Positions 12,487 through 27,575 of a DNA stretch of 32,000 bases are shown piece after piece (positions within the stretch are counted from its first letter, which is position 1; every line of letters starts with the position of its first letter). Origin of the DNA: Halomicrobium mukohataei DSM 12286. GTDB lineage: Archaea; Halobacteriota; Halobacteria; Halobacteriales; Haloarculaceae. The position numbers and the translations under genes are program-made. The notes beneath the pieces were generated by a model, which did no database searches, was not told the DNA's origin, and saw only the letters and a program-made list of their open reading frames with translations. The stretch lies in assembly GCF_000023965.1 (NCBI RefSeq), contig NC_013202.1, positions 900,001 to 932,000 on the forward strand, written 5' to 3'.

Positions 12487-12590
12487 GGGCACGTAGCTCA
12501 GTCCGGATAGAGCGTCGGACTTCTAACGCCGTCACGGCCGTGACGGTGGAAGCGATCCGACGGTCGTGGGTTCGAATCCCACCGTGCCCG
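12487..12590 (+). tRNA. tRNA-Arg (anticodon UCU) with a 29-nt intron at the canonical 37/38 position
   Basis: Folded by hand. Acceptor GGGCACG/CGTGCCC plus discriminator G. D arm GCTC-AGTCCGGATA-GAGC. Anticodon stem TCGGA/TCCGA with loop CTTCTA|A (anticodon tct at 12522-12524). T arm GTGGG-TTCGAAT-CCCAC. The intron (12526-12554) contains the hairpin ccgtcac-ggcc-gtgacgg. Confidence 0.85.
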
Positions 12591-12607
12591 TCCCGAAACC
12601 GTCGGTT
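12577..12607. repeat. attL: 31-nt direct repeat overlapping the 3' end of tRNA-Arg
   Basis: tcccaccgtgcccgtcccgaaacCgtcggtt recurs at 26066-26096 with one mismatch (C/T at 12600/26089). The first 14 nt are the tRNA 3' end. Confidence 0.85.
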
Positions 12608-12762
12608 CCGTACTTTTCCCGGATAACACGGTTATCAAGCCGTTCGTCATCCTCTCTCGACGGTTCTCGAATTCGATTTGAGAGCCAGAATTTGGTGCCC
12701 AACACAGGTGCGAACGCACCCCTCCGCCGTCTGGCATACTCTGTTACCGGGAGGTGGTCGGC

Positions 12763-12906
12763 GTGATCTCTCCCGATGGTTCTCCGTCTCGCGAGAGTTG
12801 GCCGTTCGATCCCAACGAGTTCGTCCGCGCGTCTCGCCTCCTGGAAGCGACTGACCGAGAAGTTCGCCAGGCGATCGAAGAGGTCAAGGACGGTGGTTCC
12901 CGATGA
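12763..12906 (+). CDS. Possible small ORF (47 aa, GTG start), translationally coupled to the next ORF
   Basis: Reads VISPDGSPSRESWPFDPNEFVRASRLLEATDREVRQAIEEVKDGGSR. Its stop overlaps the ATG at 12903 (ATGA). Too short for the track. The track's ORF 12776..12958 in another frame is Arg-rich and less plausible. Confidence 0.3.
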   Translation: MISPDGSPSRESWPFDPNEFVRASRLLEATDREVRQAIEEVKDGGSR

Positions 12907-13052
12907 ACGGGACCGCCTACGTCTGCGACGACTGCGGCGTCACGATCGTCGAGCGTGATCCCGACCAGACTGATCTCTGTCCAGTCTGTCGAACTGGGGG
13001 CGATCCCGAGCAGTATCCGCCGCTTAACCAGGAGCGAGGTGACTACCGATGA
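12903..13052 (+). CDS. Small zinc-ribbon protein (49 aa)
   Basis: MNGTAYVCDDCGVTIVERDPDQTDLCPVCRTGGDPEQYPPLNQERGDYR has CxxC-x16-CxxC. ATGA overlaps occur at both ends (12903-12906 and 13049-13052). Not in the track because it is under 60 aa. Confidence 0.5.
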   Translation: MNGTAYVCDDCGVTIVERDPDQTDLCPVCRTGGDPEQYPPLNQERGDYR

Positions 13053-13378
13053 CCTGCTGGTCCGAGTACGTTCACTACGACTGCGAGGACTGCGGCGAGA
13101 TCTGCATCAACCACGAGGAGAGTGATCCCGCCCAGCTGGGCAAATGTCGCGGCTGCCACATCGACGATCTCGTCGAGGACTACGAGCAGCGACTTCGTAG
13201 CCAACACTCGACGAACACCACGAGCGACCGGCCGGAGGGAGCGACCCCCTCACATGGGGGTCCGACCGACGCCGGGAGCGCACGCCCCCAAGCGAAGCGC
13301 AGGGGGCATTCGTCAGGCGGTCGCGGTCGCGGTAGCGGTCTCGTCTCCGAGGACTCTGCGAACTCTGACTCATTCTAA
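13049..13378 (+). CDS. Small zinc-ribbon protein with disordered basic/Gly-rich tail (109 aa)
   Basis: 'YDCEDCGEICINHEESDPAQLGKCRGCH' is a CxxC...CxxC motif, followed by a low-complexity tail. Coupled to the upstream ORF by an ATGA overlap. Confidence 0.55.
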   Translation: MTCWSEYVHYDCEDCGEICINHEESDPAQLGKCRGCHIDDLVEDYEQRLRSQHSTNTTSDRPEGATPSHGGPTDAGSARPQAKRRGHSSGGRGRGSGLVSEDSANSDSF

Positions 13379-13380
13379 CC

Positions 13381-15189
13381 TTGTCTACGGACGAACCCAC
13401 CACCGGCGGCTCTCGGCATACCAACTTGAACAACTCTGTAAACGACTCTGACGGGGGTAACTCACCGAAAATCGGTTCGGAGTTACCCACTCCGTACGAG
13501 CGCGTTTCAGAGTTCCACGAGGAATACTCCGACCGTGCTCACCTCCGCCTGTCGACAACCCATGGCGAACGACTCCGAGAGGAGTACACCCGAGAGTTCA
13601 CGGAGAGCTACGAATCATCCGCCCCACGAGAGTGGGACGACCCAGTGAAAGGCCAGGAGGTCGTCCGCCGGGAAGCCGTCACTTGGGGAACCGCCGTACT
13701 CCGAACGCTCGAAGACTACGCCGATACCCGCCGGACGACAGTGAATCTCGAGAAAGGTCGTCCGTCAGATCCGGAGTATCAGGAGTGGTCCGTACAGGCT
13801 GAAACGCGCTGGTTCGCCAGCTACCAGAAGCGCTACTACGCCCAGATGAAAGGCTGGCTCCGGGAACTTTGCGGTGGCAAACGACCATCCGGAGAGTACA
13901 CCGAACCCGACTTCGAGAATCCCCATGTGGCCCTCGTCACGCTATCGGCCTCGAGCGTCCCGAACGGTGATCGCGTCGGTCCGGTCGAACACGAACGGGT
14001 CCGTCGCGAGAGCTGGCAGGACGTGTATCACACTCTCCGGAACACCATGCGCTCGAAAGGCTACGAACTCGGTGACGACTGGCAGTACGACCGCCGTAGC
14101 GAGCCACACGCGGGCGAACGCGGCGGTGGCCTGAACCACTGCTATGGCCACGACCACATCGTGATCGTCGTCGACGGCGAGGTGGACGCGACAGACTTCC
14201 AGCCTGTCGTCGAAAAACACGTCGAGACGTGCGACTGGGCCGGTGAGACTGCACACGCCCTCGAGAAAGCCATCGAGGTGAAGGCCGCTGACGAGGTGGA
14301 ACACCTGGCTGAGTACTGTGCCAGCTACGCGGCCATCAAGCCCGTCGATCTCCTCGAGCGGCCGATAGAGTACGTCGCGTGGGCCAGCGCAGTCAACGCG
14401 GCCAACGTAAAGACGGTCTCACGCTCTGACGCTGCCAAACACGCCGCCACTGCTGACGCCTGCCGACAACGCGCTGAGTCCCCACAGTGCGACCAGGACC
14501 GCGATCACGCTGAAGAGATTATCCCCTCGACACGTCGTGGATATGAACTTGAGTGTGCTGAATGCGGCAGTCCCCACGGGATCGACCAGGACCAGACACT
14601 AACAGCTGCCCGATCTCCGAACGACGGCCCAGCGATCGCCGACGGCGGCCTCGTCGATCGCGTCGAACAGCTCAAGGAGCGGTGGCCGTCCGCTCGAGCA
14701 GGTGCGACAGTCGGTGAACGACCACAACGTCGACGCTGGCGACTGGCGATCGAGGAATACCTCAAACAGAACCCCGAAGCAGACCCACCCGAGATACTGG
14801 GCCAGCTGCAACTGCCACCGGACGCTCGCGAGGTCCTAGCCGAGATCGAGGCCGGGATCGATCGAAGTGTACCCGTCGGCTTCGAGCGGCCGCCCGAGTG
14901 GCAAGTCAAGTCGATCACCGTCGGTGAAGAGGAGTATCCCGCTTCCTCCGGTAACGGCGTGACGATGGTCGAGACGAAGTTGCCCGTCGAACGAGTGTAC
15001 GAAGAGTCGGTTCTATCGGAGCGCGACGACGTGACTCGCTGGCGTTGTGAGAAGACAAACGTCGCGATCGGCGGCCCTAATGCTGGTCGAAAGATGGCCG
15101 GCTATCTTGTGAAACAGGGGATCAAGCATCCATGGGTTATAGAAAGTTTAGTAGTTATTGAACACGTTCGAGGGTTAAATTCGATCTAG
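13381..15189 (+). CDS. Large provirus ORF; candidate HUH-type rolling-circle replication initiator (start codon uncertain, TTG in track)
   Basis: 602-aa open frame with acidic haloarchaeal composition. Candidate RCR motifs appear in the canonical order: I 'HVALVTLSASS', II 'HCYGHDHIVIVVD' (HxH followed by hydrophobics), III 'EYCASYAAIKP' (Tyr...K). A CxxC pair 'ECAECGSPHG' lies in the central region. A TCTCGGC motif sits at 13411, inside the 5' end. No in-frame ATG occurs until far downstream. Confidence 0.55.
   Translation: MSTDEPTTGGSRHTNLNNSVNDSDGGNSPKIGSELPTPYERVSEFHEEYSDRAHLRLSTTHGERLREEYTREFTESYESSAPREWDDPVKGQEVVRREAVTWGTAVLRTLEDYADTRRTTVNLEKGRPSDPEYQEWSVQAETRWFASYQKRYYAQMKGWLRELCGGKRPSGEYTEPDFENPHVALVTLSASSVPNGDRVGPVEHERVRRESWQDVYHTLRNTMRSKGYELGDDWQYDRRSEPHAGERGGGLNHCYGHDHIVIVVDGEVDATDFQPVVEKHVETCDWAGETAHALEKAIEVKAADEVEHLAEYCASYAAIKPVDLLERPIEYVAWASAVNAANVKTVSRSDAAKHAATADACRQRAESPQCDQDRDHAEEIIPSTRRGYELECAECGSPHGIDQDQTLTAARSPNDGPAIADGGLVDRVEQLKERWPSARAGATVGERPQRRRWRLAIEEYLKQNPEADPPEILGQLQLPPDAREVLAEIEAGIDRSVPVGFERPPEWQVKSITVGEEEYPASSGNGVTMVETKLPVERVYEESVLSERDDVTRWRCEKTNVAIGGPNAGRKMAGYLVKQGIKHPWVIESLVVIEHVRGLNSI
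13411..13513. repeat. 103-nt segment repeated beyond attR (copy 1), beginning with TCTCGGC and containing a 13-bp interrupted hairpin
   Basis: Hand alignment to 26106-26208 gives 97/103 identical. Hairpin in copy 1: ggtaactc-accga-aaa-tcggt-tcg-gagttacc (13456-13487). Confidence 0.85.
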
Positions 15190-15364
15190 AGAGGCTTCAC
15201 TCACTAGTTAAAATAGTAGTATACCTATATATAAAATATCATATATTAGTTATATATAAAACATTGTCTATTGGTTGTATTAAATATACTCATCTCGCAT
15301 ATATTATCCTGTTTCCCCATATTAATTACTTCACCATCATGTGTTCGAACTGGATAGCAATCCC

Positions 15365-16039
15365 ATGGCAACATTTGATGTAACGGTATACACGTCAAAA
15401 GAGGCGCATAGTAATGATGGGTTTGACGCCCGAGATATGGCAATAGAATTCATCGAGGGCGCATTCAACCGCTCGGATAATCACAGTGTGGACGCCACTG
15501 CTTCCGATTCTATTGTTGACGCTCCGGTTGAGTACGCAAATGATCCATTCAAGGGCCCAATGCCTTGCCATAGTTATAGAACATGGTATGATGATTTGCT
15601 ACACTGGTTCAGGGAATGGTTAGATTGTAATGAGCCATCGGAGATCGCAACAGACTGTAACCTACTGGTTACGTATGGTACCACCGGTGGACTTGGTGGA
15701 GGAGATGACGCCTATGCCTGTGTAGGAGAAAAATTGGTCCAATTCGATTCATATGAAGAATATGGATACGAAACAAAGCATGATTCAGTTGATACCCTCC
15801 TAGAAGAGCTTGGTCATGCGCTCGTATCCAATATGGAAAATGAGGATGATGATAAAGTAGCCCACGACTCTGGATATATATTCCATCATTCAGAGGGGAA
15901 TACTATAACCCCAATAGGTATTACCGGAGATACAGACTATAACAACTGCAATGTATACGTGAATAAAGACAGATGGGATGGAGAAGGTTGGGAAGCAAGG
16001 TATTCACAATGTACTGAAGATAATTTCGTGAAAAATTAA
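15365..16039 (+). CDS. Hypothetical cytoplasmic protein (224 aa) of AT-rich cargo cassette, gene 1
   Basis: ATG at 15365 (MATFDVTVY...); the track's GTG at 15341 is possible. No signal peptide. Cys/Trp/Tyr/Asn-rich, with AT-rich codon usage unlike its neighbours. Contains 'LLEELGHALV...AHDSG', which resembles a degenerate HExxH region. The stop is 1 nt before the next ATG. Confidence 0.6.
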   Translation: MATFDVTVYTSKEAHSNDGFDARDMAIEFIEGAFNRSDNHSVDATASDSIVDAPVEYANDPFKGPMPCHSYRTWYDDLLHWFREWLDCNEPSEIATDCNLLVTYGTTGGLGGGDDAYACVGEKLVQFDSYEEYGYETKHDSVDTLLEELGHALVSNMENEDDDKVAHDSGYIFHHSEGNTITPIGITGDTDYNNCNVYVNKDRWDGEGWEARYSQCTEDNFVKN

Positions 16040-16040
16040 A

Positions 16041-16505
16041 ATGAGTCAAGAGCACAACCGAAGACGGTTTATGAAGTTTGTTGGAACTGGCGCATTGTCC
16101 GCTGGCTATGTTAGTACTGGATCTGCTCAGACAGATTCAGAGAGAGATGATAATAAACAAGAGATAGGCATATACAACCATTCTGATAAAGTTGCAAATA
16201 TCGGAATAGAAATAGGAACGAGTGACAAAGTTATTTATAATAACAAGCATTCACTTCATGGGGCACGACTAGATCAGATACCAGATCATGCAGAAACAAA
16301 CAAGCGATATTCTGTTTCTGAGCAATTGTCGAACTCAGCGAGGCTTGCAACATCTGATCACGCAATAATCCGAGTGCGGAGTGATAGTGGTGAAATGGAA
16401 AAGTTGTCAGTACCAGTGGACAGTGGACAAATCTCAGAAAGAGTTTCTGTCACCGCATATATTAGCTCTGATGGAGAATTAAAGTTAGAATATAGTGTTG
16501 ATTAG
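16041..16505 (+). CDS. Tat-exported small protein (154 aa), cassette gene 2
   Basis: 'NRRRFMKFVGTGALSAGYVSTGSAQ' is a twin-arginine signal with an A-x-A-like cleavage site. The remainder looks like a small beta-rich domain. Confidence 0.65.
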   Translation: MSQEHNRRRFMKFVGTGALSAGYVSTGSAQTDSERDDNKQEIGIYNHSDKVANIGIEIGTSDKVIYNNKHSLHGARLDQIPDHAETNKRYSVSEQLSNSARLATSDHAIIRVRSDSGEMEKLSVPVDSGQISERVSVTAYISSDGELKLEYSVD

Positions 16506-16568
16506 AATAGACCATAAATAGAAGAATAGGTCCTAAAGTTTTTCTTTCTTTCGCACATCATAGCAATC

Positions 16569-17063
16569 ATGGCAAGTCGAAGACTCCTGCTTAAAAAAGT
16601 AGGGCTCCTATCCATAGTTTCTCTTTCAGGGTGTATTAATAAAATTGGAGGAAGTACAGACGGCAGAAATGTGCCAACAGTAACCCAAGATTGTGACGCT
16701 TCTGCTCGACCTGATGGGAAATATCCTAGCTTTCCTAGAGAAATAACAAGAAATAATGTAGAGGGTTTTGTATTGAAGTTTGAGAAGGCTTGGGTTCAAG
16801 CAGAGATTAATGATAGTGGAGATAACTTCTCTGGTTTTGATGGCTGGGATAGTAGTGTATATCAAGAATTGGATAACGGATTTTTTGTTACCACCCGTAT
16901 ATCTGCTGATTACTCATCTGGAAAAAACGAGGAAGGTGGAACAGATCTTGGTAGTGAAGTATTCTCTGCTTGGTACTATATCAATTCAGATTTTGCCTTT
17001 CGCTCCCAGAGGGACACCGACGAACCGCCCAACAATGGTTGGCAGACGGTCGCTTGTGCCTGA
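16569..17063 (+). CDS. Predicted lipoprotein (164 aa), cassette gene 3
   Basis: 'MASRRLLLKKVGLLSIVSLSGC' has an RR n-region, an h-region and a lipobox Cys. C-terminal 'TVACA'. AT-rich codon usage. Confidence 0.65.
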   Translation: MASRRLLLKKVGLLSIVSLSGCINKIGGSTDGRNVPTVTQDCDASARPDGKYPSFPREITRNNVEGFVLKFEKAWVQAEINDSGDNFSGFDGWDSSVYQELDNGFFVTTRISADYSSGKNEEGGTDLGSEVFSAWYYINSDFAFRSQRDTDEPPNNGWQTVACA

Positions 17064-17180
17064 TTATTCTATTTTCTGTGCGACTATACAGCCATACCCA
17101 TAACCCACTTTATAAAACTTAGCCATACTTCTATTTGTACTCAAGGGTTTTTGGGCGGATCTTGAAGATACAGTGTAGCA

Positions 17181-17507
17181 ATGCCCAGTAAACCCGACTC
17201 CTTCGACGATCTCGAACCGACCGAAACCACCACGGACGACGGCGGAACCGATCGGATCGATCTCGATCCCGGCCAAGAGGTGGTCGGCACGATCACCGGC
17301 CTGAACCTGAACGCTGGGTACAACGGTGTGGTCGAGCTGGACGGCCGCCCGATGTACCTGAACAACCAGCTCAAGAACCAGATCATCGCGGCGCTCGTCG
17401 AAGGCAGTACGATGGGCGTTCGGATGTCCGAGGACACCGAGACCTTCGAGAACGACGACGGCGAGGAACAAGAGTACCACCCCAAGGAAGCGAGGTTCGA
17501 CCGATGA
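17181..17507 (+). CDS. Provirus hypothetical protein (108 aa, acidic)
   Basis: Clean ATG ORF at the start of the high-GC structural module. Its stop overlaps the next ATG (17504). A TTTATAAA-like TATA element ('ctttataaaac', ~17109-17119) lies upstream. Confidence 0.6.
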   Translation: MPSKPDSFDDLEPTETTTDDGGTDRIDLDPGQEVVGTITGLNLNAGYNGVVELDGRPMYLNNQLKNQIIAALVEGSTMGVRMSEDTETFENDDGEEQEYHPKEARFDR

Positions 17508-17920
17508 GCAGCCAGTACAAGAACCGCGTGTCGGACATGGCGAGCGACTACATGAACATCCGGAGCCTTCCGGCGATGCTGTCGGTCGGCTTCATCCTCG
17601 CCAGTCTCTACCAGTTCGGCGGCATCTCCGACGTGACGCTCACCTGGCTCGCTGACTCTGGTGGCTACACCCTCACCAACCAGCACGCAATCATGGTATC
17701 GCTCGGAGCCTTCGCTGCGGCGTTCGCCTCCAGCGAGACCAAGCGCTTCGAACACTACGAGCGCTGGGAGCAGGTCGCGATCGCCGCCGGCCCGGGTGTG
17801 ATCCTCGGCCAGCAGTACGTCACCGAAGTGAACGACTTCCTCCTCAGTCTGGGCGACCCGCTCGGGATGCAGCTGGCGTTCGGTGCGACGATCCTCTCCT
17901 GGGGAGTCGCGGTCCAGTAG
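17504..17920 (+). CDS. Multi-pass membrane protein (pleolipovirus VP3-like internal membrane protein candidate)
   Basis: 138 aa with 3-4 hydrophobic helices (LPAMLSVGFILASLY; AIMVSLGAFAAAFA; VAIAAGPGVILG; LAFGATILSWGVAV). It sits immediately upstream of the spike-like ORF, as in pleolipovirus genomes. Confidence 0.6.
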   Translation: MSSQYKNRVSDMASDYMNIRSLPAMLSVGFILASLYQFGGISDVTLTWLADSGGYTLTNQHAIMVSLGAFAAAFASSETKRFEHYERWEQVAIAAGPGVILGQQYVTEVNDFLLSLGDPLGMQLAFGATILSWGVAVQ

Positions 17921-17924
17921 ATCC

Positions 17925-19769
17925 ATGATCGGACACAAGAACGCGCTCCGACTGCTCGTGGCGCTGCTCGTCGTCGGGTCCGTTATCCCGGCCCCGGCAG
18001 TTGCCCAGTCGGATAACGAGTATTCCCACCAGTTCACTGGTGGGCCGCAAGGGGTCGTAGTCGACCAGAGTAACATCTCTGGCGACTTCACGGTCACAGT
18101 CTCCTCGACCGAGGTGACTGGTCGGTCTGGCCAAAAGACGCTGCTCGCGCAGAAACGGCTAGGTCCCGGTACCGAGGAGAAGATCGTCTTCATGAACGAA
18201 GGTGCCTACGACAACATCACCGTCGAGGTGACGATCCACGACAGTGGTGAGCCTGAGTTCATGGCTGAGTCCGATGTTGGGATCGACGTTCCGTACATCA
18301 TCGGCCACACTGGTGGTGACGCTGATCTCCAGTGCAACAAAGACGAAAAGCTGTTCTCGATGACCAACCCGATGGTCGAGGTCGTGGACTGCACTCCGCC
18401 GGTGGATAATGGCGTTGACACCAGTCAGACTGATGCTGAACAGTTGAAGATCGATCTGTACCAGTCTGGTCAGAATGCAAAAGCCTCGAGCGACGTCTAC
18501 CAGACCACGCTCGACAACTACCTTCAGGACACCGAGACGCAGGCTCGGATCATCGGCAAGAACGCTTACGTCCGGGCGCTGAACAATGGCAGCAGCAAGG
18601 CTGCTGCCAAGACTGAGGCCAAAAACGCCGTCGCTGATTACTACTCCACTCACGAGCGGAACCTCATCGCCAAGTGGAATCTGCAGGTGTCTAACTACGA
18701 GTATAACCGCGGTGTCGCTGTGAACGAATCACTCGATCAAAACGAGGAAGCCGTCTACCAGCGAACCGCCCCGACGTACCTCAATGGTACGATGGGTGCC
18801 AACGGTGATTACGAGCAGTTCCCCTACTTCGCCAACGTTGGCAGTAATTCGCTGACGCTGTCGAATGGTACTACGGTCTCTGCGAGTACGATCGTCTTCG
18901 ATGAGGTGCAGCGAGACAGTACCGACGCCACCCACAACAACAAGGGAGAGGCTGGTACTCTGACGATGACTTCTGGTTACGTTGACTGGGAGGACTCCGT
19001 GGGCGATATCAACACTGTGTACGGTGTAACGTTCACTGGCCCCACGTCTGACTACGAAGATGTTGAGGCCATCGACTTGGCTGAGTACGAGGCCAAGTGG
19101 TCCGAAATCCAGTCCCAGAACACGCAGGTCCAGAACGACATGGACACTGTTGTCGAGAACACGTACGACGAGTACCAGTCGGGCGAGATCAACAACACCG
19201 ATCTCGTCGATCCGTACGTGCTGTCCAACGACTTCAGTGCTGGTAACGAATACCAGTCGTGGTCTGCTGCCCAGCTGACGCTGCTCGGCACCAACAGCCC
19301 CGAAGCCATGGACACGATGGGCGAGTTCAACGTCACGACCGCTGACGGCACCACGCACACTGGTGTGCTCATGTCCCAGTCGAACCCGGCGAGTGGCCAG
19401 TTCGAGGTCAACACGACCTACGACACGGCCAATATCACCGGCCCGCAATTCGTGGTCACCGCTGATCGACTCGTCGAACTCGACGGCGAGTTCACGGTCG
19501 ACTCGATCGAGACGACTGACGGCGAAAGCCGAGAGAACGTGACGATCGAGAAGACGACCTACGACACTGCGGACATCAACGTGACGCAGCTGGTCGAGTT
19601 GTACGAACAACTCAACAAGGAGCGCGCCGAGTGGGAAGCTCGCGAGCAGAACTTGCGTGGCGGCGCTGGCGGGTTCGCGTTCGGCAACAGTACGAGTCTC
19701 GGGATCATCGCCGCCCTCGCTGGCGGGATGCTACTCCTTCGAAACCGCGACGACGGAGGTCGGTACTGA
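17925..19769 (+). CDS. Spike/fusion-like envelope glycoprotein (pleolipovirus VP4-like candidate)
   Basis: Start placed at MIGHKNALRLLVALLVVGSVIPAPAVAQS (signal peptide). C-terminal TM anchor 'LGIIAALAGGMLLL' followed by 'RNRDDGGRY'. About 13 N-x-S/T sequons (NIS, NIT, NGS, NES, NGT x2, NNT, NVT x3, NTT, NIT, NST). 614 aa. Confidence 0.7.
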   Translation: MIGHKNALRLLVALLVVGSVIPAPAVAQSDNEYSHQFTGGPQGVVVDQSNISGDFTVTVSSTEVTGRSGQKTLLAQKRLGPGTEEKIVFMNEGAYDNITVEVTIHDSGEPEFMAESDVGIDVPYIIGHTGGDADLQCNKDEKLFSMTNPMVEVVDCTPPVDNGVDTSQTDAEQLKIDLYQSGQNAKASSDVYQTTLDNYLQDTETQARIIGKNAYVRALNNGSSKAAAKTEAKNAVADYYSTHERNLIAKWNLQVSNYEYNRGVAVNESLDQNEEAVYQRTAPTYLNGTMGANGDYEQFPYFANVGSNSLTLSNGTTVSASTIVFDEVQRDSTDATHNNKGEAGTLTMTSGYVDWEDSVGDINTVYGVTFTGPTSDYEDVEAIDLAEYEAKWSEIQSQNTQVQNDMDTVVENTYDEYQSGEINNTDLVDPYVLSNDFSAGNEYQSWSAAQLTLLGTNSPEAMDTMGEFNVTTADGTTHTGVLMSQSNPASGQFEVNTTYDTANITGPQFVVTADRLVELDGEFTVDSIETTDGESRENVTIEKTTYDTADINVTQLVELYEQLNKERAEWEAREQNLRGGAGGFAFGNSTSLGIIAALAGGMLLLRNRDDGGRY

Positions 19770-19957
19770 TGGTCTACTGGCTGGTGCTGAAAGCGATCCC
19801 GATGAAACCCGTCTCCGCGATCGCACTGCTCGGGTTCGGCCTCGAGGCGATGGGCGTCCCCGTGATCGGCCCAGCCGTAGATCTCGTTTCGCCACTCGTC
19901 GACGATGCGATCGGCTGGATAGAGTCACAACTAACTGCCTCGTGGCAGTTCTGGTAA
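19769..19957 (+). CDS. Small membrane protein (62 aa)
   Basis: MVYWLVLKAIPMKPVSAIALLGFGLEAMGVPVIG... The ATG overlaps the spike stop (TGATG at 19767-19771). Internal start within track ORF 19631..19957. Confidence 0.5.
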   Translation: MVYWLVLKAIPMKPVSAIALLGFGLEAMGVPVIGPAVDLVSPLVDDAIGWIESQLTASWQFW

Positions 19958-19983
19958 CACCATTCCCCTACCCGGTTTCAGAC

Positions 19984-20541
19984 ATGAATCACAACGTCGT
20001 TAGCATCGCGTTCGTCCTGCTCGTCTGTAGTACAGTCCTAGCTGGCGTCTCGATCGGTCAACAGACCGCCGGCAACACAGCAACTCCAGCGGATCCGTCA
20101 GGTCCTGATGGCGGTCCCTCGAACTACGAACTCGTGATCGACGAGAACGTCGGTGTCGTCGACTACAGCGTCGAGGACGGCGTGTTCGTCATCGAGTTCT
20201 ATTCGGACGAGTTCAAATCCGTCACCCTCTCCGCAGCTCCGGATACAAGCAGTCAGTCCGGCTCGATCTCGTTCCGGTCCGTCGTCGTCGAGGCCGATAC
20301 CAGGACGACCGTGCGTATTACTGCCTCGTCCGCCGTCTCGATGTGGACTGACGACAGTCTCGAACGAGAGCAAGCGTACTACATCCGCAAGCAGTCGGGC
20401 TTCATCGTCGACGGCCCGTGGACCGCTTCGGACGTTCGTGACGCCGCACTCGGCGGCGCTCTCGGCGTCGTGGTCGCCGTCCTGTACGAAGCAGTCGCCG
20501 CCAAGGTCGGTACGACCGAACGAGGTGAGCGCGTCGCATGA
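19984..20541 (+). CDS. Secreted/membrane-anchored provirus protein (185 aa)
   Basis: Internal ATG of track ORF 19657..20541: 'MNHNVVSIAFVLLVCSTVLAGVSIGQQ' is a signal peptide. A C-terminal hydrophobic segment is 'AALGGALGVVVAVLYEAVAA'. ATGA overlap with the next ORF. Confidence 0.6.
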   Translation: MNHNVVSIAFVLLVCSTVLAGVSIGQQTAGNTATPADPSGPDGGPSNYELVIDENVGVVDYSVEDGVFVIEFYSDEFKSVTLSAAPDTSSQSGSISFRSVVVEADTRTTVRITASSAVSMWTDDSLEREQAYYIRKQSGFIVDGPWTASDVRDAALGGALGVVVAVLYEAVAAKVGTTERGERVA

Positions 20542-21353
20542 GCGACCCTGAAGCCGGACAGGAACAGCCCGCCGAACTGGACCAGGAGCCGAGTCGATCC
20601 CGGTGGTTCCGTGCGTTCCGATGGCTGACCGAGAACCTGACGCTTCTGGCGTCGGGTGTCGGTCTCGGCCTGTTCATTCTCGCGTCGGTCATCGGCTACG
20701 AACTCCCGCGCAATCTCAAGATCATCGGCCTCACAGCTATCATCATCGTCCCGATCGTCGGGCGACCGACCGGCAAGAAGGTCCGGTCGCTGTTGTGGGA
20801 ACCGACGTACGTCTGGCTCGTCGACGTCGACGCTCGCTACACCAAGGGCGGCATCTTCCGCGTTCCTGGCCAGCGATTTAGCGAGTGGACGATCACCGAG
20901 GGCCAACTCGACTGGGTGAGTCCCGATCTCGCCTTTGGAAAGCAGGTCGATCTCGACGAGCAGACCGTCGAGGGCACCTGGCGCGGTACCATGTCCGACC
21001 GAGAGCTGATGAAAACGCTCCAGGCCGTCGAGGAGTGTCGCGGCCAACTCGAAGAGGACGCGAAGCGTGGCTTCGCCATCGAAGCCCAGGCGTTCACGAT
21101 CATCCGCAATGCCACCCGGAAGGCCGTGCTGCGGATCGTCTCGATGTTCGAACGTGGGACCCTTCCAGACGAAGGAGAGGGGTTGACCGACGAGATCGAC
21201 AACGCGATCGAGCAGTTCGGTCTCGAGCGGAAGATTCGCGAGACTGAAGAGGACTCGCAGGAGTCCGAAACCCCTGGCGTTCGTATCGACTTCGACCAAG
21301 ACCTTGCTGATCTCGCCGGAGCTGGGAACGGAGGTGCGCCCGCCGATGACTGA
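20538..21353 (+). CDS. Provirus membrane protein (271 aa, two N-terminal TM helices)
   Basis: TM helices 'NLTLLASGVGLGLFILASVIGY' and 'IIGLTAIIIVPIVG', followed by a soluble acidic domain. Coupled on both sides. This position corresponds to the conserved ORF upstream of the NTPase in pleolipoviruses. Confidence 0.6.
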   Translation: MSDPEAGQEQPAELDQEPSRSRWFRAFRWLTENLTLLASGVGLGLFILASVIGYELPRNLKIIGLTAIIIVPIVGRPTGKKVRSLLWEPTYVWLVDVDARYTKGGIFRVPGQRFSEWTITEGQLDWVSPDLAFGKQVDLDEQTVEGTWRGTMSDRELMKTLQAVEECRGQLEEDAKRGFAIEAQAFTIIRNATRKAVLRIVSMFERGTLPDEGEGLTDEIDNAIEQFGLERKIRETEEDSQESETPGVRIDFDQDLADLAGAGNGGAPADD

Positions 21354-22251
21354 TGGCGTCGACGAACACTTGCTCACTGCGGCGAAGCTCTACGAGCAGG
21401 TCCGTGGCGATCTCGACGGCGACGATCGTCTCCTTCCGCATACCGGGATCGTCGACGATACCCAGGACCGAGCGGCGCTGTCGTTCCTCGAGACTGCGTT
21501 CCGAGAAGCCGACGAACTTCCCACTTCGTCAAGGACGTTCGAAGGTACGTCGCTCGGCCAAGTGCTTGCCTCGAAGCAAATCACCGGGACTGCAACCGAA
21601 GCCGTCGCCCAGGGCAACGGCTCGATCATGTCCCACATCGTCGGCGTCACCGAACAGGATCTCGATGCCTCCGCGCTACGGCTCCCTATGATGCTGCTCG
21701 AGGAAATAGAGAACAACGGCGCTCCGGCGTTCATCACTGCTGCCGGGAACCCGAACACCGGCAAAACGAACACGGCGATCCTGCTAATTCAGCTGCGTGC
21801 GCTCGATCGCGACGATCTCCTCGTACTGTCGAATGTTCGCACCTGGAATGAGACAGATATCGTCGTCACGTCGGCCCACGATCTCGCCGTGCAACTCCTC
21901 GAGCATCGCGACCGACCGAAAGCAATCCTGATCGACGAAGGATCGACCCACTTCGATGCTCGGACGAACCGGCGAGAAGTGGCCGAGCAGTACACTCCGC
22001 TGGCGAAGCGGTACGCAAAGCTCAACGTCGACCTAGAGGCTGTCGTCGTCCATACCGGTAAGGACCTTCATCCAGAGCGTAAGCGACTCTCCACGCTGGC
22101 AATATACAAGACTTCGAAGAAATCTGCTAATTTCTTCGAACACTGGCCTGCTGATGCCGACACACCCACAGATCAGTTGTTTGGTGGGAGTCTAGAGGAA
22201 ATCGAAAAAGCCACCGGCTACGATCCCGATGACGCGGCTCCTTGGACCTAG
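21346..22251 (+). CDS. P-loop NTPase (pleolipovirus VP8-like candidate)
   Basis: Walker A 'AAGNPNTGKTN' and Walker B 'AILIDEGS'. Start placed at MTDGVDEHLL (ATG at 21346), overlapping the previous ORF by 8 nt. Confidence 0.7.
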   Translation: MTDGVDEHLLTAAKLYEQVRGDLDGDDRLLPHTGIVDDTQDRAALSFLETAFREADELPTSSRTFEGTSLGQVLASKQITGTATEAVAQGNGSIMSHIVGVTEQDLDASALRLPMMLLEEIENNGAPAFITAAGNPNTGKTNTAILLIQLRALDRDDLLVLSNVRTWNETDIVVTSAHDLAVQLLEHRDRPKAILIDEGSTHFDARTNRREVAEQYTPLAKRYAKLNVDLEAVVVHTGKDLHPERKRLSTLAIYKTSKKSANFFEHWPADADTPTDQLFGGSLEEIEKATGYDPDDAAPWT

Positions 22252-22400
22252 AATCTTCAAGCTGGGCTTTTCGAAAAGGATATCGATTGGTCTGAATTAC
22301 TCAGTAAGTTAAAAGAAGGCGGGCCTGAATATAGGAATGAGTAAAATACCAACCTGCTTTAGCGGTGATAGATATAAATATGAATCTTGTTAAACATTAG

Positions 22401-23246
22401 ATGGGGATGAAGAATCAACTATCCGAATGGTATGATCCATCAGCAAATCCAGTTTACCAGACTATTACTAAAATCCGGTTTCCTCGGCAACAGGGACACG
22501 CTACTGGGTTTTTTTATAATAGTGATGATAAAACATATCTAGTGACTAACAGACACGTGGTTTCACCTGACGATGATGAGGTACAAGATCCAGATTCTAT
22601 TCGAATATTTACACGTCCTGTTGACTCCTTAGGAGATCGAGAATATCACGATATCTCACTAAATGAAGGGGAAGGAAAGAGTTGGTTCACGCATCCAATT
22701 CACGATGCAGACATAGCTGTACTGCCTCTAGATTTTGAATTAGATTGTGTCAATCATAGGATTGGAATTGATGAAGAGCGTCCCGTTGAAACCGGAAGTC
22801 TGGCCTACAACGAGGATTCGATTCTTTCAGAAAAAGATAGGGTTCTCCCAGGTAATAGAGCACAAGTAGTCGGTTATCCAGGAGACTATGTAGATCAACA
22901 ATATGGGTTCCCTGTGACAAGAAACGCCGTCGTTTCTACTCAATACGGTTTTCCGTTCGATGGGAATCCTATTTTTTTAACTGATGCCCGGATGCATCCT
23001 GGAACAAGTGGAAGCCCTGTGGTGGCTGGCCCGGAAACTCTCATTATACATGGTGGTCTTGATCTTTGGGGACCAGCGTATAAATTGCTCGGAGTGCATT
23101 CTGCTACCTTACAACAATCTACAGTCGATAAAGATGATGAGAGGATGTTAGAATTAAATACCACCTGGTATGCAGAACTGATAGAAGAGATTCTATTCTT
23201 AAAAGATACAGATATTGAAGAACTAGATGATCAAGAAAATAATTGA
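22401..23246 (+). CDS. Cytoplasmic trypsin/chymotrypsin-fold serine protease (S1-like, Trypsin_2-type)
   Basis: Catalytic triad in canonical order and context: 'YLVTNRHVV' (His52), 'HDADIAVLPL' (Asp104), 'HPGTSGSPVV' (Ser203). No signal peptide and no PDZ domain. AT-rich codon usage. A TATA-like 'gatagatataaatatg' ends ~20 nt before the ATG, suggesting a leaderless mRNA. Confidence 0.8.
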   Translation: MGMKNQLSEWYDPSANPVYQTITKIRFPRQQGHATGFFYNSDDKTYLVTNRHVVSPDDDEVQDPDSIRIFTRPVDSLGDREYHDISLNEGEGKSWFTHPIHDADIAVLPLDFELDCVNHRIGIDEERPVETGSLAYNEDSILSEKDRVLPGNRAQVVGYPGDYVDQQYGFPVTRNAVVSTQYGFPFDGNPIFLTDARMHPGTSGSPVVAGPETLIIHGGLDLWGPAYKLLGVHSATLQQSTVDKDDERMLELNTTWYAELIEEILFLKDTDIEELDDQENN

Positions 23247-23259
23247 ATATTATCCCCGC

Positions 23260-23265
23260 TTTTTT
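23260..23265 (+). terminator. Oligo-T tract (T6) downstream of the protease gene
   Basis: 'ccccgcTTTTTTgtgg' lies 14 nt after the stop. Archaeal terminators are typically oligo-T runs. Confidence 0.4.
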
Positions 23266-23341
23266 GTGGCCCAGATTAGTTTCACTTTCACTCCGGCGTT
23301 GGCCCTCACTTTTACCACTCCATATCCTTGGTCCATATCCG

Positions 23342-23506
23342 ATGTCCCTGAATGAATGGCTATGTTGCCCCGCTGGGTGTGATGCGACGATCGAGGCGGT
23401 TACGCTCCCCGGCAGTCGGATCGGACTCCAGTGTGTGGCGTGCGGACGCAAAATCGAAGAACCAGTGGAACAGGTCGAAGAGAATTATCGGACGATAGAG
23501 GTCTAA
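23342..23506 (+). CDS. Small zinc-ribbon protein (54 aa)
   Basis: Internal ATG of track ORF 23243..23506: MSLNEWLCCPAGCDATIEAVTLPGSRIGLQCVACGRKIEEPVEQVEENYRTIEV (CxxxC...CxxC). The stop overlaps the stop of the convergent nuclease-like gene. Confidence 0.45.
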   Translation: MSLNEWLCCPAGCDATIEAVTLPGSRIGLQCVACGRKIEEPVEQVEENYRTIEV

Positions 23507-24525
23507 TCCTCGCCGTGCTCCTCGAGCGTGGTGAACTCCAACTCGTCAGGTGAGTACTGATACTGTTTCAGGTCTTCGTCGTCACAGTGATCAGAAAGAT
23601 TGGCCGGTGCAACTTCCTCTCCGGTCGGACCTTCGTAGACGACGCTCACTTCGTCGCCGTCGATCCCGACAACCACCGCGGGGTTCGGGTCGTCGTGTGA
23701 CGACTTGACGACGTAATCACCGACAGTGTACGGATTCTCTGCGAAATTCAGGTTCTCGTGCTTGTACGTGTAGAGGCTAACGTCCTGGTCGTCGCAGTAC
23801 GAGGACAACAGTGCTGGCTCGATGTCTCGCCAATCGCCCGGTCCCTCGTCGAGCGAGCTGGGGAAGGCTACCCGGACAGCTTCGCCGTCCATTTTCTGCC
23901 CGAATAGTTCGATCTGTGTCTCCGGCGGTAGCACCTCGACGACGACCCCGACCGATGCATCTTCGTCCTCCCGCTTCTCGACACGATCGCCCGGCTGAAA
24001 CGGATTCTCCGGTTTCTGGTTCATGTTCGCCGTGTTCGGCCCCAGGTCCTGGAGGTCGTTCATCGGCCGAGCAGCGAGGTGGTCGAGCTTCGCTGGCGTG
24101 TCGCCCGAGAACTGTTCCTCAGTCTCGACTTTCGACTCGAGCGTGGCGACGTGCTCCCAGCCGAGCAGAATCAGGCTATCCTCGTTGTCCCGGTGCCAGA
24201 CCATGACGATGATGTCGTCAGCTGAATCCATCTCGATCAGATTCTTCGGGAGAAACGCCGACACGTCGCGAGAGGTCTTCACGTCGACTTCGTAGTCGAA
24301 TACCTCGAAATCGTGTCCTGCGAAACTCTCCGCGTTACATCGTCTGATCGCATCCTCGTTCTGCCACTCCCACATCTCTGCTGGCAGGTACTCGCGACAA
24401 AACTGCTCGAACGCGATCTCCCCGAGGTTCCCGATCCGCTTCGCATCGATATTGTCTGCATCCTGAATGACAGCCTGGTGATTGGCTCGACTGCTATCGA
24501 TTTCGTCCGGAGTAAACTGATACAC
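23503..24525 (-). CDS. PD-(D/E)xK-like nuclease N-domain fused to two tandem copies of a ~70-90 aa C-terminal domain
   Basis: N-terminus: 'GNLGEIAFEQF', 'AGHDFEVFDYEVDVKTS' (D...E-x-D-x-K) and 'IIVMVW' fit a restriction-endonuclease-like core. C-terminus: residues 174-263 and 264-332 align (NPFQPGDRVEK...VVV...SSYCDDQDVSLYTYKHENLNF versus NPYTVGDYVVK...VVV...SDHCDDEDLKQYQYSPDELEF). Confidence 0.6.
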   Translation of the reverse strand: MYQFTPDEIDSSRANHQAVIQDADNIDAKRIGNLGEIAFEQFCREYLPAEMWEWQNEDAIRRCNAESFAGHDFEVFDYEVDVKTSRDVSAFLPKNLIEMDSADDIIVMVWHRDNEDSLILLGWEHVATLESKVETEEQFSGDTPAKLDHLAARPMNDLQDLGPNTANMNQKPENPFQPGDRVEKREDEDASVGVVVEVLPPETQIELFGQKMDGEAVRVAFPSSLDEGPGDWRDIEPALLSSYCDDQDVSLYTYKHENLNFAENPYTVGDYVVKSSHDDPNPAVVVGIDGDEVSVVYEGPTGEEVAPANLSDHCDDEDLKQYQYSPDELEFTTLEEHGED

Positions 24526-24641
24526 ACTGATACCATTTTATTTAACCACTATGAGTTTTCGTGTACCAGAAAGCACTCAGGAATTTCAACGACTCAACCC
24601 ACCCACCGACCCACCCCCAAGTGGGTACTGGAAAATACCGT

Positions 24642-24857
24642 TTATTCCTCGTCGACGGCTTGCCGAACGGCCTCGACGACGAACTCCCGCCGTTCCTCGT
24701 CAGTCATCTCTTCGTCCAGCTCGTCGATCTCCTCCAGGACTTCGAGCTTCATCTTGATCGCGTCCCTGACCCAGCCAGATCGAGAATCACCGTAGGAGAG
24801 TGTACTATCGAGTTCGTCGAGTAGCTCCTGCTCCATATTGAAACTCGGCTGTACCAT
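24642..24857 (-). CDS. Ribbon-helix-helix (CopG/Arc-like) DNA-binding protein
   Basis: Start placed at MVQPSFNMEQELLDELDSTL...SRSGWVRDAIKMKLEV. This gives a beta-strand plus two helices in the RHH pattern, with an acidic tail. Divergent from the integrase gene. Confidence 0.7.
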   Translation of the reverse strand: MVQPSFNMEQELLDELDSTLSYGDSRSGWVRDAIKMKLEVLEEIDELDEEMTDEERREFVVEAVRQAVDEE

Positions 24858-24858
24858 C

Positions 24859-24958
24859 TTGCTAACGTAGTGGATAGCCAATTGCTTAATTCCTGACTTG
24901 CCCAGTTGCTAACTTGCTTAGTTGCCAAAAGCTTATTACCAAGTAGCTAAATTAGCAA
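24859..24958. promoter_or_regulatory. Array of TTGCTAA/TTGCTTA heptamers between the RHH gene and the integrase gene (putative operator or arm-type sites)
   Basis: Read directly: ttgctaa 24859, ttgctta 24882, ttgctaa 24906, ttgctta 24914, ttgccaa 24922, tagctaa 24944, and inverted ttagcaa 24952. 'agttgctaa' (24904-24912) and 'ttagcaact' (24952-24960) form an inverted pair. Confidence 0.5.
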
Positions 24959-24963
24959 CTCAT

Positions 24964-26019
24964 ATGCCCGACCCGGATCTCGAACCCATCTCGCCGGTCG
25001 AAGCCGTTGAGATGTACCACGATGCGATGGTCGACGAACTGGCGGAGTCGACCAGGAAGAGCAACAAACACCGGCTTCGTGCCTTCATCCAGTTCTGCGA
25101 CGAAGAGGAGATCGAGAACCTGAACGATCTCACCGGGCGCGATCTCTACAAATATCGGATCTGGCGGCGAGAGGGCAACGGCGACGGTCGAGAGCCTATC
25201 AAGAAGGTCACCCTGAAAGGACAACTCGCCACGCTTCGGAGTTTCCTCAAGTTCGCTGGCGAGATTGATTCCGTGAAGCCAGATCTCTACGAACAGTTGT
25301 CGCTCCCGGCGATGAAAGGCGGTGAAGACGTATCGGAATCGACCCTCGACCCCGAACGAGCGCTCGATATTCTGGAGTATCTCGAGAAGTCCCAGCCCGG
25401 AAGCCGCGACCACATCATCATCGCCCTGCTCTGGGAAACGGGTGGCCGAACGGGCGCAATCCGTGGCCTCGACCTACAGGATCTCGATCTCGATGGCGAC
25501 CATCCCCGATTCTCCGGCCCGGCAGTTCACTTCGTCCACCGACCGGAAACCGGTACTCCACTCAAGAACCAGAAAAGCGGCACTCGCTGGAACCGGATCA
25601 GTGAGAAGACGGCTGCGTTCATCGAGGACTACATCGAGTTCCACCGTCCCGACGTGACGGACGATCACGGCCGGGACCCTCTGCTGACCAGCGAGTACGG
25701 TCGTGTCGCCGGGAACACCTACCGGAGAACACTCTATCGGGTCACTCGCCCGTGCTGGCGCGGCGAGGAATGTCCCCACGATCGAGATCTCGACGAGTGC
25801 GAGGCAACGCATCTCGATCACGCGAGCAAGTGTCCGTCAGCTCGGTCACCCCACGACGTTCGGAGTGGCCGGGTCACCTACTACCGTCGAGAAGACGTCC
25901 CCCGGAAGATCGTCCAGGAGCGACTGAACGCGAGCGAGGACATTCTCGACCGACACTACGACCGTCGATCGAACCGCGAACAGGCCGAACAGCGCAGCGA
26001 CTTCCTCCCGGACGTGTGA
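24964..26019 (+). CDS. int: Tyrosine recombinase / phage-type integrase
   Basis: N-terminal SAM-like core-binding domain. Catalytic residues sit in typical contexts: 'GGRTGAIRGLDL' (Arg), 'SPHDVRSGRVTY' (HxxR), 'ILDRHYDRR' (Tyr). Start placed at ATG 24964 (MPDPDLEPISPVEAV); the track's 24922 is a TTG. The gene ends 46 nt before attR. Confidence 0.85.
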   Translation: MPDPDLEPISPVEAVEMYHDAMVDELAESTRKSNKHRLRAFIQFCDEEEIENLNDLTGRDLYKYRIWRREGNGDGREPIKKVTLKGQLATLRSFLKFAGEIDSVKPDLYEQLSLPAMKGGEDVSESTLDPERALDILEYLEKSQPGSRDHIIIALLWETGGRTGAIRGLDLQDLDLDGDHPRFSGPAVHFVHRPETGTPLKNQKSGTRWNRISEKTAAFIEDYIEFHRPDVTDDHGRDPLLTSEYGRVAGNTYRRTLYRVTRPCWRGEECPHDRDLDECEATHLDHASKCPSARSPHDVRSGRVTYYRREDVPRKIVQERLNASEDILDRHYDRRSNREQAEQRSDFLPDV

Positions 26020-26065
26020 TACCCATGTTACTACAATCCACATCGCGAACTGTCGGAAAGCAGGT

Positions 26066-26096
26066 TCCCACCGTGCCCGTCCCGAAACTGTCGGTT
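26066..26096. repeat. attR: second copy of the 31-nt att repeat
   Basis: tcccaccgtgcccgtcccgaaacTgtcggtt gives 30/31 identity to 12577-12607. Confidence 0.85.
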
Positions 26097-26105
26097 GCTT
26101 ACTCT

Positions 26106-26210
26106 TCTCGGCATACCAACTCGAACAACTCTGTAAACGACTCTGACGGGGATAACCCACCGAAAATCGGTTCGGAGTTACCGACTCGCTACGAGCGCGT
26201 TTCAGAGTGA
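26106..26210 (+). pseudogene. Truncated ghost of the Rep-like ORF 5' region (copy 2 of the 103-nt repeat)
   Basis: Translates as SRHTNSNNSVNDSDGDNPPKIGSELPTRYERVSE*, versus SRHTNLNNSVNDSDGGNSPKIGSELPTPYERVSEF... in the intact ORF. Homology starts exactly at TCTCGGC, 10 nt after attR, and ends at a TGA. Confidence 0.7.
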
Positions 26211-26422
26211 TTGCTTTCGTGAGGATGCTCAGTAGCTTTTTATTGCCGTACTTGAGAAAGTGTGCGAGTCGCTCTCTGTATTCAGCACAACTGTTGGCTC
26301 CTGTTATCGTTTGAAGAATCCAATAAGGCCGCTACTACTGAATTTTGATCCTGGAATCCAAGCTAGCTTGTTTTAATCCAAAAAGCAGCGCTAGAATTTG
26401 AGATGCCGCTTCGACCGCGATG

Positions 26423-26608: not shown

Positions 26609-26626
26609 AGGACGTAATTTATATTT

Positions 26627-27556: not shown

Positions 27557-27575
27557 CCGCAATATTACTTTTAGC

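Follow-up and report, generated by a model that had tools for sequence, protein, structure and literature searches.

A probable temperate alphapleolipovirus-type provirus, known as proviral region 2, in the tRNA-Arg(UCU) gene of Halomicrobium mukohataei DSM 12286: att core, cargo and a shortened NTPase

What occupies the 13.5 kb that follow the tRNA-Arg(UCU) gene of Halomicrobium mukohataei DSM 12286, and is the occupant still able to live as a virus? The stretch of DNA analyzed here (the window) comprises 32,000 nt of contig NC_013202.1, positions 900,001 to 932,000; coordinates below are those of the window, and features lie on the plus strand unless stated otherwise. Positions 12577 to 26079 are very probably the integrated genome of a temperate alphapleolipovirus-type virus of this host, identical with a published proviral region. 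Table 3 of Sencilo et al. 2012 (PMC3384331) lists this region 2 at 912,487 to 926,019 (Hmuk_0952 to Hmuk_0965), crediting its first report to Roine & Oksanen 2011, and places it in subgroup I, the group of pleomorphic viruses with a rolling-circle replication (RCR) initiator Rep that is now Alphapleolipovirus-type. Subtraction of 900,000 from these coordinates gives 12487 and 26019, exactly the start of the tRNA and the stop of the integrase gene, and the provirus in the window is therefore already in the literature. An earlier reading of the letters alone (the original prediction) had suggested a mosaic worth classifying; that suggestion falls, because the region was reported in 2011 and tabulated in 2012 as subgroup I, and because the combination of Rep with an SNJ2-type integrase is also already published (Humcor2, Halfgib1, Halfvol3). 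From core to core the provirus measures 13,489 bp, and its proteins are deposited as ACV47081 to ACV47094. Halomicrobium sp. ZPS1 (CP045142) matches the window at 100% identity, as do Logan contigs assembled from SRR017869 and SRR017870 (24.5 kb), and a whole-element megablast against PLSDB plasmids returned no match.

The left end of the element lies in its integration target, a tRNA-Arg(UCU) gene (12487 to 12590; Rfam tRNA, 62 bits) that is complete after integration. The anticodon TCT is read at 12522 to 12524, and alignment with orthologous tRNA-Arg(TCT) genes places a 29-nt intron at the canonical 37/38 position (12526 to 12554), as the original prediction of an intron-containing tRNA-Arg had it. 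The intron columns are missing in the orthologues of Haloarcula onubensis and Salinibaculum, and the metagenome-assembled genome (MAG) QS_4_62_28 has a different intron sequence there; the intron itself folds into a stem with two 3-nt bulges. ARAGORN miscalled the window tRNA because of this 29-nt intron, and its call was rejected in favor of Rfam and the alignment to intron-less orthologues, which ARAGORN types as Arg(tct).

From within this tRNA a direct repeat extends over 46 nt (12577 to 12622) and returns at 26066 to 26111 with 89% identity; its first 23 nt are exact, and 100 shuffles produced no chance match. The 31-nt repeat (30 of 31 identical) described earlier is thus real, but it overstates the att core. 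In the sibling provirus of strain LC1Hm, attL and attR have in common only TCCCACCGTGCCCG plus 2 nt, and the sequence on the right bears no relation to the virus arm; the predicted recombination core is therefore the final 14 (to 16) nt of the tRNA. In the window, the attL core TCCCACCGTGCCCG forms the 14-nt 3' end of the tRNA (12577 to 12590), and an exact copy, the attR core, marks the right end of the provirus (26066 to 26079), with nucleotide homology to the LC1Hm and metagenome siblings ending at 26081. A core of 14 nt agrees with the 13- to 14-bp cores reported for the SNJ2-type integrase family (PMC5861418). The integrase gene, which is intact, stops at 26019, and 46 nt separate it from the start of att at 26066, the spacing given in the original prediction.

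The integrase (24964 to 26019, 351 aa; Pfam Phage_integrase and Phage_int_SAM_1) is an SNJ2-type tyrosine recombinase, 57 to 59% identical to SNJ2 Int and 60% to HHPV4 Int (57% and 60% by tblastn). Its residues R162, A165, K201, H297, R300, A323, and Y332 align with R165, G168, K199, H295, R298, A321, and Y330 of SNJ2, where the integrase residues have been defined experimentally (Wang et al. 2018, PMC5861418). This is the IntSNJ2 signature R...K...HxxR...A...Y, in which Gly/Ala replaces Glu/Asp-I and Ala replaces His/Trp-III, and the intact gene followed after 46 nt by a short core from a tRNA 3' end has the layout of an IntSNJ2 module. Wang et al. report SNJ2-type integrases in 4 alpha- and 29 betapleolipoproviruses and count five such elements in DSM 12286. 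Divergent from the integrase gene is that of a 71-aa protein (24642 to 24857, minus strand; phrog_30270; siblings 90 to 94%), a candidate repressor whose gene position corresponds to that of SNJ2 orf4, the repressor of the integrase promoter. The protein has a ribbon-helix-helix look by eye and no Pfam match. A 9-bp inverted repeat read from the sequence (AGTTGCTAA / TTAGCAACT, 24904 to 24960, no strand assigned) lies just upstream of the integrase start and may be an operator. A bacterial promoter and terminator scan was disregarded, as it is not meaningful for an archaeon.

At the other end of the element, the gene for a putative RCR initiator, Rep (13381 to 15189, 602 aa; Pfam DUF1424, 3.9e-15; phrog_10542, "replication protein"), would supply the RCR initiator as ORF1 that defines the Alphapleolipovirus type. 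The protein is 32% identical both to HHPV-1 ORF1 and to Humcor2 Rep. Both histidines of the HUH motif that had been proposed for it (H257 and H259) are invariant in the alignment, in which motif 1 ("ALVTLSAS") and a Y-x3-Y motif ("EYCASY") were read by eye. Between the tRNA and rep lie the virus-side arm of attL (12591 to 12766), which holds the 3' part of an open reading frame (ORF) found only in the circle, and three small genes. The first (12754 to 12906, 50 aa) has a GTG start and an ATGA overlap with the next, and its LC1Hm product is 79% identical; an overlapping 60-aa ATG ORF in another frame (12776 to 12958) is probably spurious, the GTG ORF being the one conserved in LC1Hm. It is followed by a CxxC...CxxC zinc-ribbon protein (12903 to 13052, 49 aa; weak Pfam zinc-ribbon matches; LC1Hm 82%), in a position equal to that of the CxxC proteins of Humcor2 and Halfgib1, and by a second CxxC protein (13049 to 13378, 109 aa; phrog_34929; LC1Hm 85%). 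When the element is circularized in silico, a predicted 76-aa ORF runs from an ATG at 26025 through att to a stop at 12764 to 12766 and precedes the 50-aa and CxxC genes. LC1Hm has an equivalent attP-bridging open frame with a conserved C-terminus. Dyall-Smith et al. 2021 (PMC7911831) describe a coding sequence in pleolipoproviruses that spans attP between int and the CxxC gene and is split on integration; the predicted bridging ORF would fit this temperate layout. In the integrated state, a frame crossing attR continues in frame into a rep-fragment stump beyond it as a 152-aa chimera (25752 to 26210) that is probably insignificant.

The genes in the middle of the element form a pleolipovirus structural module. 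Six ORFs within 17181 to 22251 match PHROGs at E-values of 3e-34 to 3e-181, and PHROGs, tblastn, and matches to VP5 structures in the PDB agree that the genes between the repeats are the pleolipovirus core set. The module opens with an ORF2/ORF3-like small protein (17181 to 17507, 108 aa; phrog_6009; 47% to HHPV-1 ORF2), followed by the first component of the Pleolipoviridae core, a VP3-like internal membrane protein (17504 to 17920, 138 aa; phrog_5900, 1.6e-62; precomputed Pfam PF26064 VP3) that is 59% identical to its counterpart in Humcor2 and 51% to that in HHPV-1. The second component is the spike or membrane-fusion glycoprotein (17925 to 19769, 614 aa; tblastn; precomputed PF26255 Viral_env_HRPV). 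Among 30 pleolipovirus records searched by tblastn, its closest relatives are the spikes of Harhisp1, HHPV3, and HHPV4 (43 to 45% identical), with 29% to HRPV-1 VP4, and it matches PDB chains 6qgi (1.9e-10), 6j7v, and 6qgl, the VP5 fusion proteins of HRPV-2 and HRPV-6. From its sequence, the spike has a signal-like N-terminus, a C-terminal hydrophobic anchor, and exactly 13 N-x-S/T sequons, where about 13 had been expected of a 614-aa glycoprotein with signal peptide and anchor. A 62-aa protein, hydrophobic by eye, comes next (19769 to 19957; phrog_15969; LC1Hm 87%), then an ORF5/6-like protein whose two termini show hydrophobic stretches by eye (19984 to 20541, 185 aa; phrog_1938; precomputed PF26259; 30% to Halfgib1 HfxHg1_040) and an ORF6/7-like membrane protein (20538 to 21353, 271 aa; phrog_5952; 47% to HHPV-1 ORF6 and 44% to the Humcor2 homologue). 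Collinear ORF6/ORF7-like membrane proteins together with a VP8-like NTPase (19984 to 22251) are the third component, the NTPase being present in shortened form. The similarity of spike and NTPase to pleolipoviral proteins, on which the original prediction had staked its refutation, is clear (spike 45% to the Harhisp1/HHPV3/HHPV4 spikes, NTPase 57% to HHPV-1 ORF7), and the ATGA-type overlaps it described link several genes (at 13049, 17504, and 20538, and additionally at 12903). The Logan contigs from SRR017869 and SRR017870 both end at 20541, at the ATGA between the 185-aa and 271-aa genes, which may reflect a repeat common to the other pleolipovirus-like region of this genome.

An in-frame stop shortens the NTPase. 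Its ancestral frame (21346 to 22344; identified by tblastn and PHROGs) runs to a TAA at 22342 to 22344, whereas the ORF in the window ends after 301 aa at a TAG (22249 to 22251); siblings have 328 to 332 aa. The protein is 57% identical to ORF7 of HHPV-1 and HHPV-2 and 51% to HRPV-1 VP8, and the Walker A ("GNPNTGKT") and Walker B ("LIDEGS") motifs, seen in the alignment, are intact upstream of the TAG. The Walker A/B NTPase of the original prediction is thus confirmed in its motifs and its similarity but not in an intact end. HHPV-1, Humcor2, Halfgib1, LC1Hm, and the metagenome sibling share a conserved Trp where the TAG stands, and the LC1Hm codon at this position is TGG. The 30 codons after the TAG are still clearly homologous, and the nonsense mutation is therefore recent; its presence in two independent assemblies argues that it is no sequencing error. 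The TGG-to-TAG mutation is predicted to remove the 30 conserved terminal residues of the NTPase.

Relatives of the provirus occupy the same site in other genomes. LC1Hm (CP044129, locus L102) carries a sibling at the same intron-bearing tRNA-Arg(UCU) locus, which has DUF373 and peptidase-inhibitor genes as neighbors in both genomes. The 14-nt core and the gene order are the same, and Rep, NTPase, and Int are 91%, 89%, and 89% identical. Unlike the element in the window, the LC1Hm provirus measures 11,134 bp, lacks both low-GC islets described below, encodes a 332-aa NTPase with TGG, and has an attR flank of clean host DNA. The most variable gene among the siblings, which include the metagenome contigs ERZ508600 / Ga0207771, is the spike, with 62% identity in LC1Hm and 31% in the metagenome versus about 89 to 91% for Rep, NTPase, and Int. 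In Halomicrobium katesii, the same site holds the tRNA, the att arm, the small genes, and Rep residues 1 to 164, after which follow an IS630-like gene (IS, insertion sequence) and unrelated host genes; a second piece, which begins in the C-terminus of the spike and reaches residue 188 of the NTPase, is found behind another IS fragment at a distance of about 95 kb. This arrangement indicates that the H. katesii provirus was probably split by IS-mediated rearrangement. The two pieces (KB905378; L004 12379 to 14760 and L098 7225 to 10567) each abut an IS630-like helix-turn-helix gene, the first piece being followed by an IS1595 fragment. Identity of H. katesii to the window is 91 to 94% across the provirus DNA, 97.7% in the host flank, and 99% in the upstream host gene; between DSM 12286 and LC1Hm it is 90.5 to 95.6% in the host flank and about 78 to 86% in the provirus.

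The MAG Halobacteriales QS_4_62_28 (L005 11345 to 11503) has a second tRNA 3' end with a virus-type att arm 106 nt after its tRNA-Arg(UCU), and no provirus genes were detectable downstream of this second att copy. The empty tRNA-Arg site that the original prediction had proposed to look for was not found among the loci examined, which were located through the DUF373 gene in one genome per species; of 80 DUF373 loci, the one in H. katesii alone had any of the provirus or TrkA proteins of the window within 10 kb. Past the tRNA, synteny does not extend beyond the genus, and within the genus the downstream DNA differs among DSM 12286, LC1Hm, and H. katesii. To judge from these loci, the tRNA-Arg(UCU) site is one apparently held repeatedly by a single virus lineage. 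They form a natural series at one site in one genus: the apparently intact 11.1-kb provirus of LC1Hm, the cargo-laden and nonsense-bearing copy of DSM 12286/ZPS1, the IS-shattered H. katesii provirus, and the bare att arm of the MAG. In this series, temperate pleolipoviruses are seen to occupy the site repeatedly, to gain cargo, and to decay, and the functional att core is fixed at 14 to 16 nt.

How might such an element live? By analogy with its family, we speculate that the integrase would excise a 13.5-kb circle, in which the ORF across attP would be restored, and that Rep would copy the circle by the rolling-circle route. Progeny would leave the cell as membrane vesicles bearing VP3 and spike, with no lysis, and the divergent 71-aa protein may repress the integrase promoter during lysogeny. 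According to Dyall-Smith et al. 2021 (PMC7911831), who cite Liu et al. 2015, excision of Hmc. mukohataei proviruses, perhaps including this one, is supported by PCR. Several points weigh against a functional temperate virus. Virions of the DSM 12286 element are not known. Position and appearance by eye are what make the 71-aa protein a possible repressor and the inverted repeat a possible operator. Homologues of SNJ2 Orf2 and Orf3 were not found by tblastn at E<=0.01, and no co-directional ORF lies upstream of int. In SNJ2, Orf2 (a coiled coil) and Orf3 (MarR-like) are co-transcribed with int, and homologues are reported in only 5 of 38 elements (PMC5861418); their absence therefore does not exclude membership of the IntSNJ2 group. 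The Logan contigs of the sequencing runs contain only the attL and attR junctions, with neither a circle nor an empty site, such contigs being insensitive to rare circles. Finally, the shortened NTPase may leave this copy incapable of virion formation.

It is quite possible, though we would sooner doubt than assert it, that the provirus is cryptic and decaying: it may excise, but would be defective for particle formation, and the host would keep it mainly for its peptidase and secreted-protein cargo. The tail removed by the TAG is kept by relatives from HHPV-1 down to the closest siblings, read assemblies show the integrated junctions only, and at the same site the H. katesii provirus is visibly decaying, its rep cut by an IS and its second fragment displaced. 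Set against such decay, the other roughly 17 genes of the DSM 12286 element are all intact and tightly coupled through ATGA overlaps, both Walker motifs precede the stop, and the homology beyond it is still clear, as befits a recent mutation.

The cargo in question consists of two low-GC islets, predicted earlier as several islets and now seen to be real insertions relative to the LC1Hm sibling that coincide with the low-GC stretches. Islet 1 (15138 to 17173; GC 0.40 to 0.43), which is replaced by 142 nt in LC1Hm, is a cassette of three genes: 15341/15365 to 16039 (232/224 aa), 16041 to 16505 (154 aa), and 16569 to 17063 (164 aa). By eye, the 154-aa product has a twin-arginine signal and the 164-aa product a lipobox, LSGC. 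The 232/224-aa protein has only six homologues among 5.8 billion clustered proteins, with five invariant Cys and an invariant EExGH...HDS motif; it matched nothing in Pfam, PHROGs, PADLOC, or the PDB, and its AlphaFold model (pLDDT 51) was too poor for a structure search. The trio recurs in the same order in contigs from hypersaline metagenomes (aa identity 65%, 31%, and 38%), where it adjoins a 668-aa DDE_Tnp_1 transposase and has a GC content of 0.40 within DNA of 59% GC (0.55 to 0.60 beyond the cassette). Conserved order, low GC, and the neighboring transposase together argue that the cassette moves as a unit. Islet 2 (22291 to 23275; GC 0.33 to 0.50 in 150-nt windows; 62 nt in LC1Hm) carries one gene (22401 to 23246) for a 281-aa trypsin-like serine peptidase (Pfam Trypsin_2, 1.3e-13; phrog_7688) with His, Asp, and Ser motifs by eye. 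The peptidase belongs to the PADLOC candidate defense family PDC-S45 (1.1e-25) and has no counterpart in sequenced haloviruses. No convincing terminal repeats were seen at the islet ends examined. We regard it as doubtful that both insertions are functional "moron" cargo of a kind new to archaeal viruses, for which the NTPase-crippled provirus is kept. If this were true, the islet 1 cassette, with its one cytoplasmic Cys-rich protein and its two putatively secreted or lipid-anchored ones, might serve as a mobile module for the host surface or for exclusion, given that a transposase adjoins it in non-viral DNA too, and the PDC-S45 peptidase could be an antiviral gene.

Between islet 2 and the integrase region lie two further genes of the right arm. 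A zinc-ribbon-like protein (23342 to 23506, 54 aa) is 98% identical to the product of a called 54-aa gene in LC1Hm. The DUF7961 protein (23503 to 24525, minus strand, 340 aa; phrog_18072; precomputed PF25902/PF25903) occurs in all sibling proviruses and is 72% identical to Halfgib1 HfxHg1_080; it has no relative in the PDB.

Does the element end at attR? The stretch just beyond the core (26080 to 26208) is, judging from the repeat families and from the LC1Hm attR flank, which has no such sequence, probably a remnant of an earlier related element outside the present provirus. In the remnant, an att arm (to 26111) is joined to a 103-nt fragment of the 5' part of rep (26106 to 26208 versus 13411 to 13513, 94%) that covers codons ~11 to 45 and had escaped the original prediction, and the stump breaks off at 26208. 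The ~790 nt that part these two pieces in the resident left end are missing from the stump, and at the edges of the deletion stand two short strings that resemble each other, CCCGG and CTCGG. The simplest reading is that an earlier related element would have held the tRNA and shrunk to its first ~140 nt, after which the present virus entered the regenerated tRNA end.

From the stump to the TrkA gene, the following 1.7 kb (26209 to 27900) have a GC content of 0.51 to 0.56 versus 0.69 in windows 28001 to 29500 and hold two ORFs on the minus strand, one of 316 aa (26627 to 27577) and a 61-aa membrane ORF (26423 to 26608; precomputed DUF7987). Neither gave a Pfam match above threshold or any PHROGs, phage, or plasmid match. 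We think it unlikely that a larger island, whether one composite element or two in tandem, reaches from the tRNA almost to the TrkA gene (~27,900). The rep fragment and att arm directly right of attR, the low GC of the next 1.7 kb with its two orphan genes, and the variability of tRNA-downstream DNA among the three strains fit such an island. Nevertheless, no third att copy bounding the remnant exists anywhere in the window, homology with both sibling proviruses ends at 26081, and 26209 to 27900 has no detectable relation to pleolipoviruses. The same 1.7 kb includes a 90-nt element resembling a miniature inverted-repeat transposable element (MITE) at 27663 to 27752, whose terminal inverted repeats measure ~19 nt (CTATAGTAACAATTGAAA ... 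TTTTCAATGGCTACTATAG). LC1Hm has a 92% copy, oppositely oriented, between ABC-transporter and IclR genes (L102 5767 to 5856); the window has no such element at the corresponding site (9438/9441), an insertion polymorphism.

An integrative plasmid of the pHK2 type, with the same genes and no extracellular stage, is an improbable occupant. The Haloferax plasmid pHK2 is reported to have the whole set of HRPV-1/HHPV-1 homologues (PMC3384331), Pfam describes DUF1424 as a family of "putative rep proteins," and virus and plasmid are inseparable here by sequence alone. What speaks for the virus is that the structural module, with its VP3-like protein, 13-sequon fusion spike, and NTPase, is kept across siblings at 62 to 91% identity, which argues for continued selection on particle formation, and that the same-layout relatives Humcor2 and Halfgib1 came from cell-free virus stocks. 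The weakest alternative, an ancestral stretch of chromosome whose repeat arose by chance or from a duplicated tRNA fragment, can draw on the lack of a truly empty site among the retrieved loci and on a left junction common to H. katesii, but it is effectively refuted, and insertion upheld as predicted, by the repeat bounds (23 nt exact, chance expectation 0), an integrase-to-att distance typical of the family, the existence of free viruses with the same genes, a same-site LC1Hm sibling with att repeats, whole cassettes by which strains differ, and a provirus more diverged than its host flank (94% versus 97.7% in H. katesii, about 78 to 86% versus 90.5 to 95.6% in LC1Hm).

An alphapleolipovirus-type provirus with these features has close parallels. 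Humcor2 (MW344764, Halorubrum coriense), an Alphapleolipovirus reported, like Halfgib1, to have been recovered as circles from cell-free virus stocks, shares the order CxxC, Rep, variable region, ORF3-like, VP3-like, spike, ORF6/7-like, ATPase, variable region, integrase, and attP, the last again matching a tRNA 3' end over a short stretch (13 bp). Unlike the window element, it targets tRNA-Pro, measures 11.8 kb, and carries other cargo, and its Int, Rep, and NTPase are 35%, 32%, and 55% identical. For the NTPase (57%), the VP3-like protein (51%), ORF2 (47%), ORF6 (47%), and Rep (32%), the closest isolates are HHPV-1 and HHPV-2 (Haloarcula hispanica; Alphapleolipovirus), which are collinear. 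In contrast to the provirus, these have 8.1 kb, no integrase, no cargo, and a spike with ~23% identity. The provirus spike instead has its nearest relatives among betapleolipoviruses, in HHPV3, HHPV4, and Harhisp1 (43 to 45%), i.e., in Haloarcula viruses, a pattern that fits the link between spike type and host family reported in a 2023 survey.

SNJ2 (Natrinema; Betapleolipovirus) is similar in its non-canonical integrase signature, its short 14-bp core from a tRNA 3' end, and the placement of att after int (46 nt here versus 48 in subgroup I; PMC5861418). It differs in having Orc1/Cdc6, a different putative Rep, a tRNA-Met target, and the accessory Orf2/Orf3, none of which were found in the provirus. 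The Rep-plus-integrase pleolipovirus layout is seen in Halfgib1 and Halfvol3 (Haloferax) and in plasmid pHK2, and the 2023 survey also describes a provirus with an RCR endonuclease and an integrase at tRNA-Trp. Halfgib1 resembles the present element further in its position at a tRNA-Arg and in its DUF7961 gene (72%), NTPase (55%), and Int (54%); the Rep of Halfgib1, Halfvol3, and pHK2 is of another RCR endonuclease family (~20% identity), and the att core sequence differs.

With the provirus known since 2011-2012, and integrase family, att logic, and Rep-plus-integrase layout all described, the discovery value of this analysis is small. Compared with published region 2, the DNA is the same. 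Its published boundaries are the start of the tRNA and the stop of the integrase gene, while the att cores are set here at 12577 to 12590 and 26066 to 26079. What is new, as refinements of region 2 and not as a new system, is the 14-nt core, the stump of a predecessor, the nonsense codon in the NTPase gene, and the limits and mobility of the cargo cassettes.

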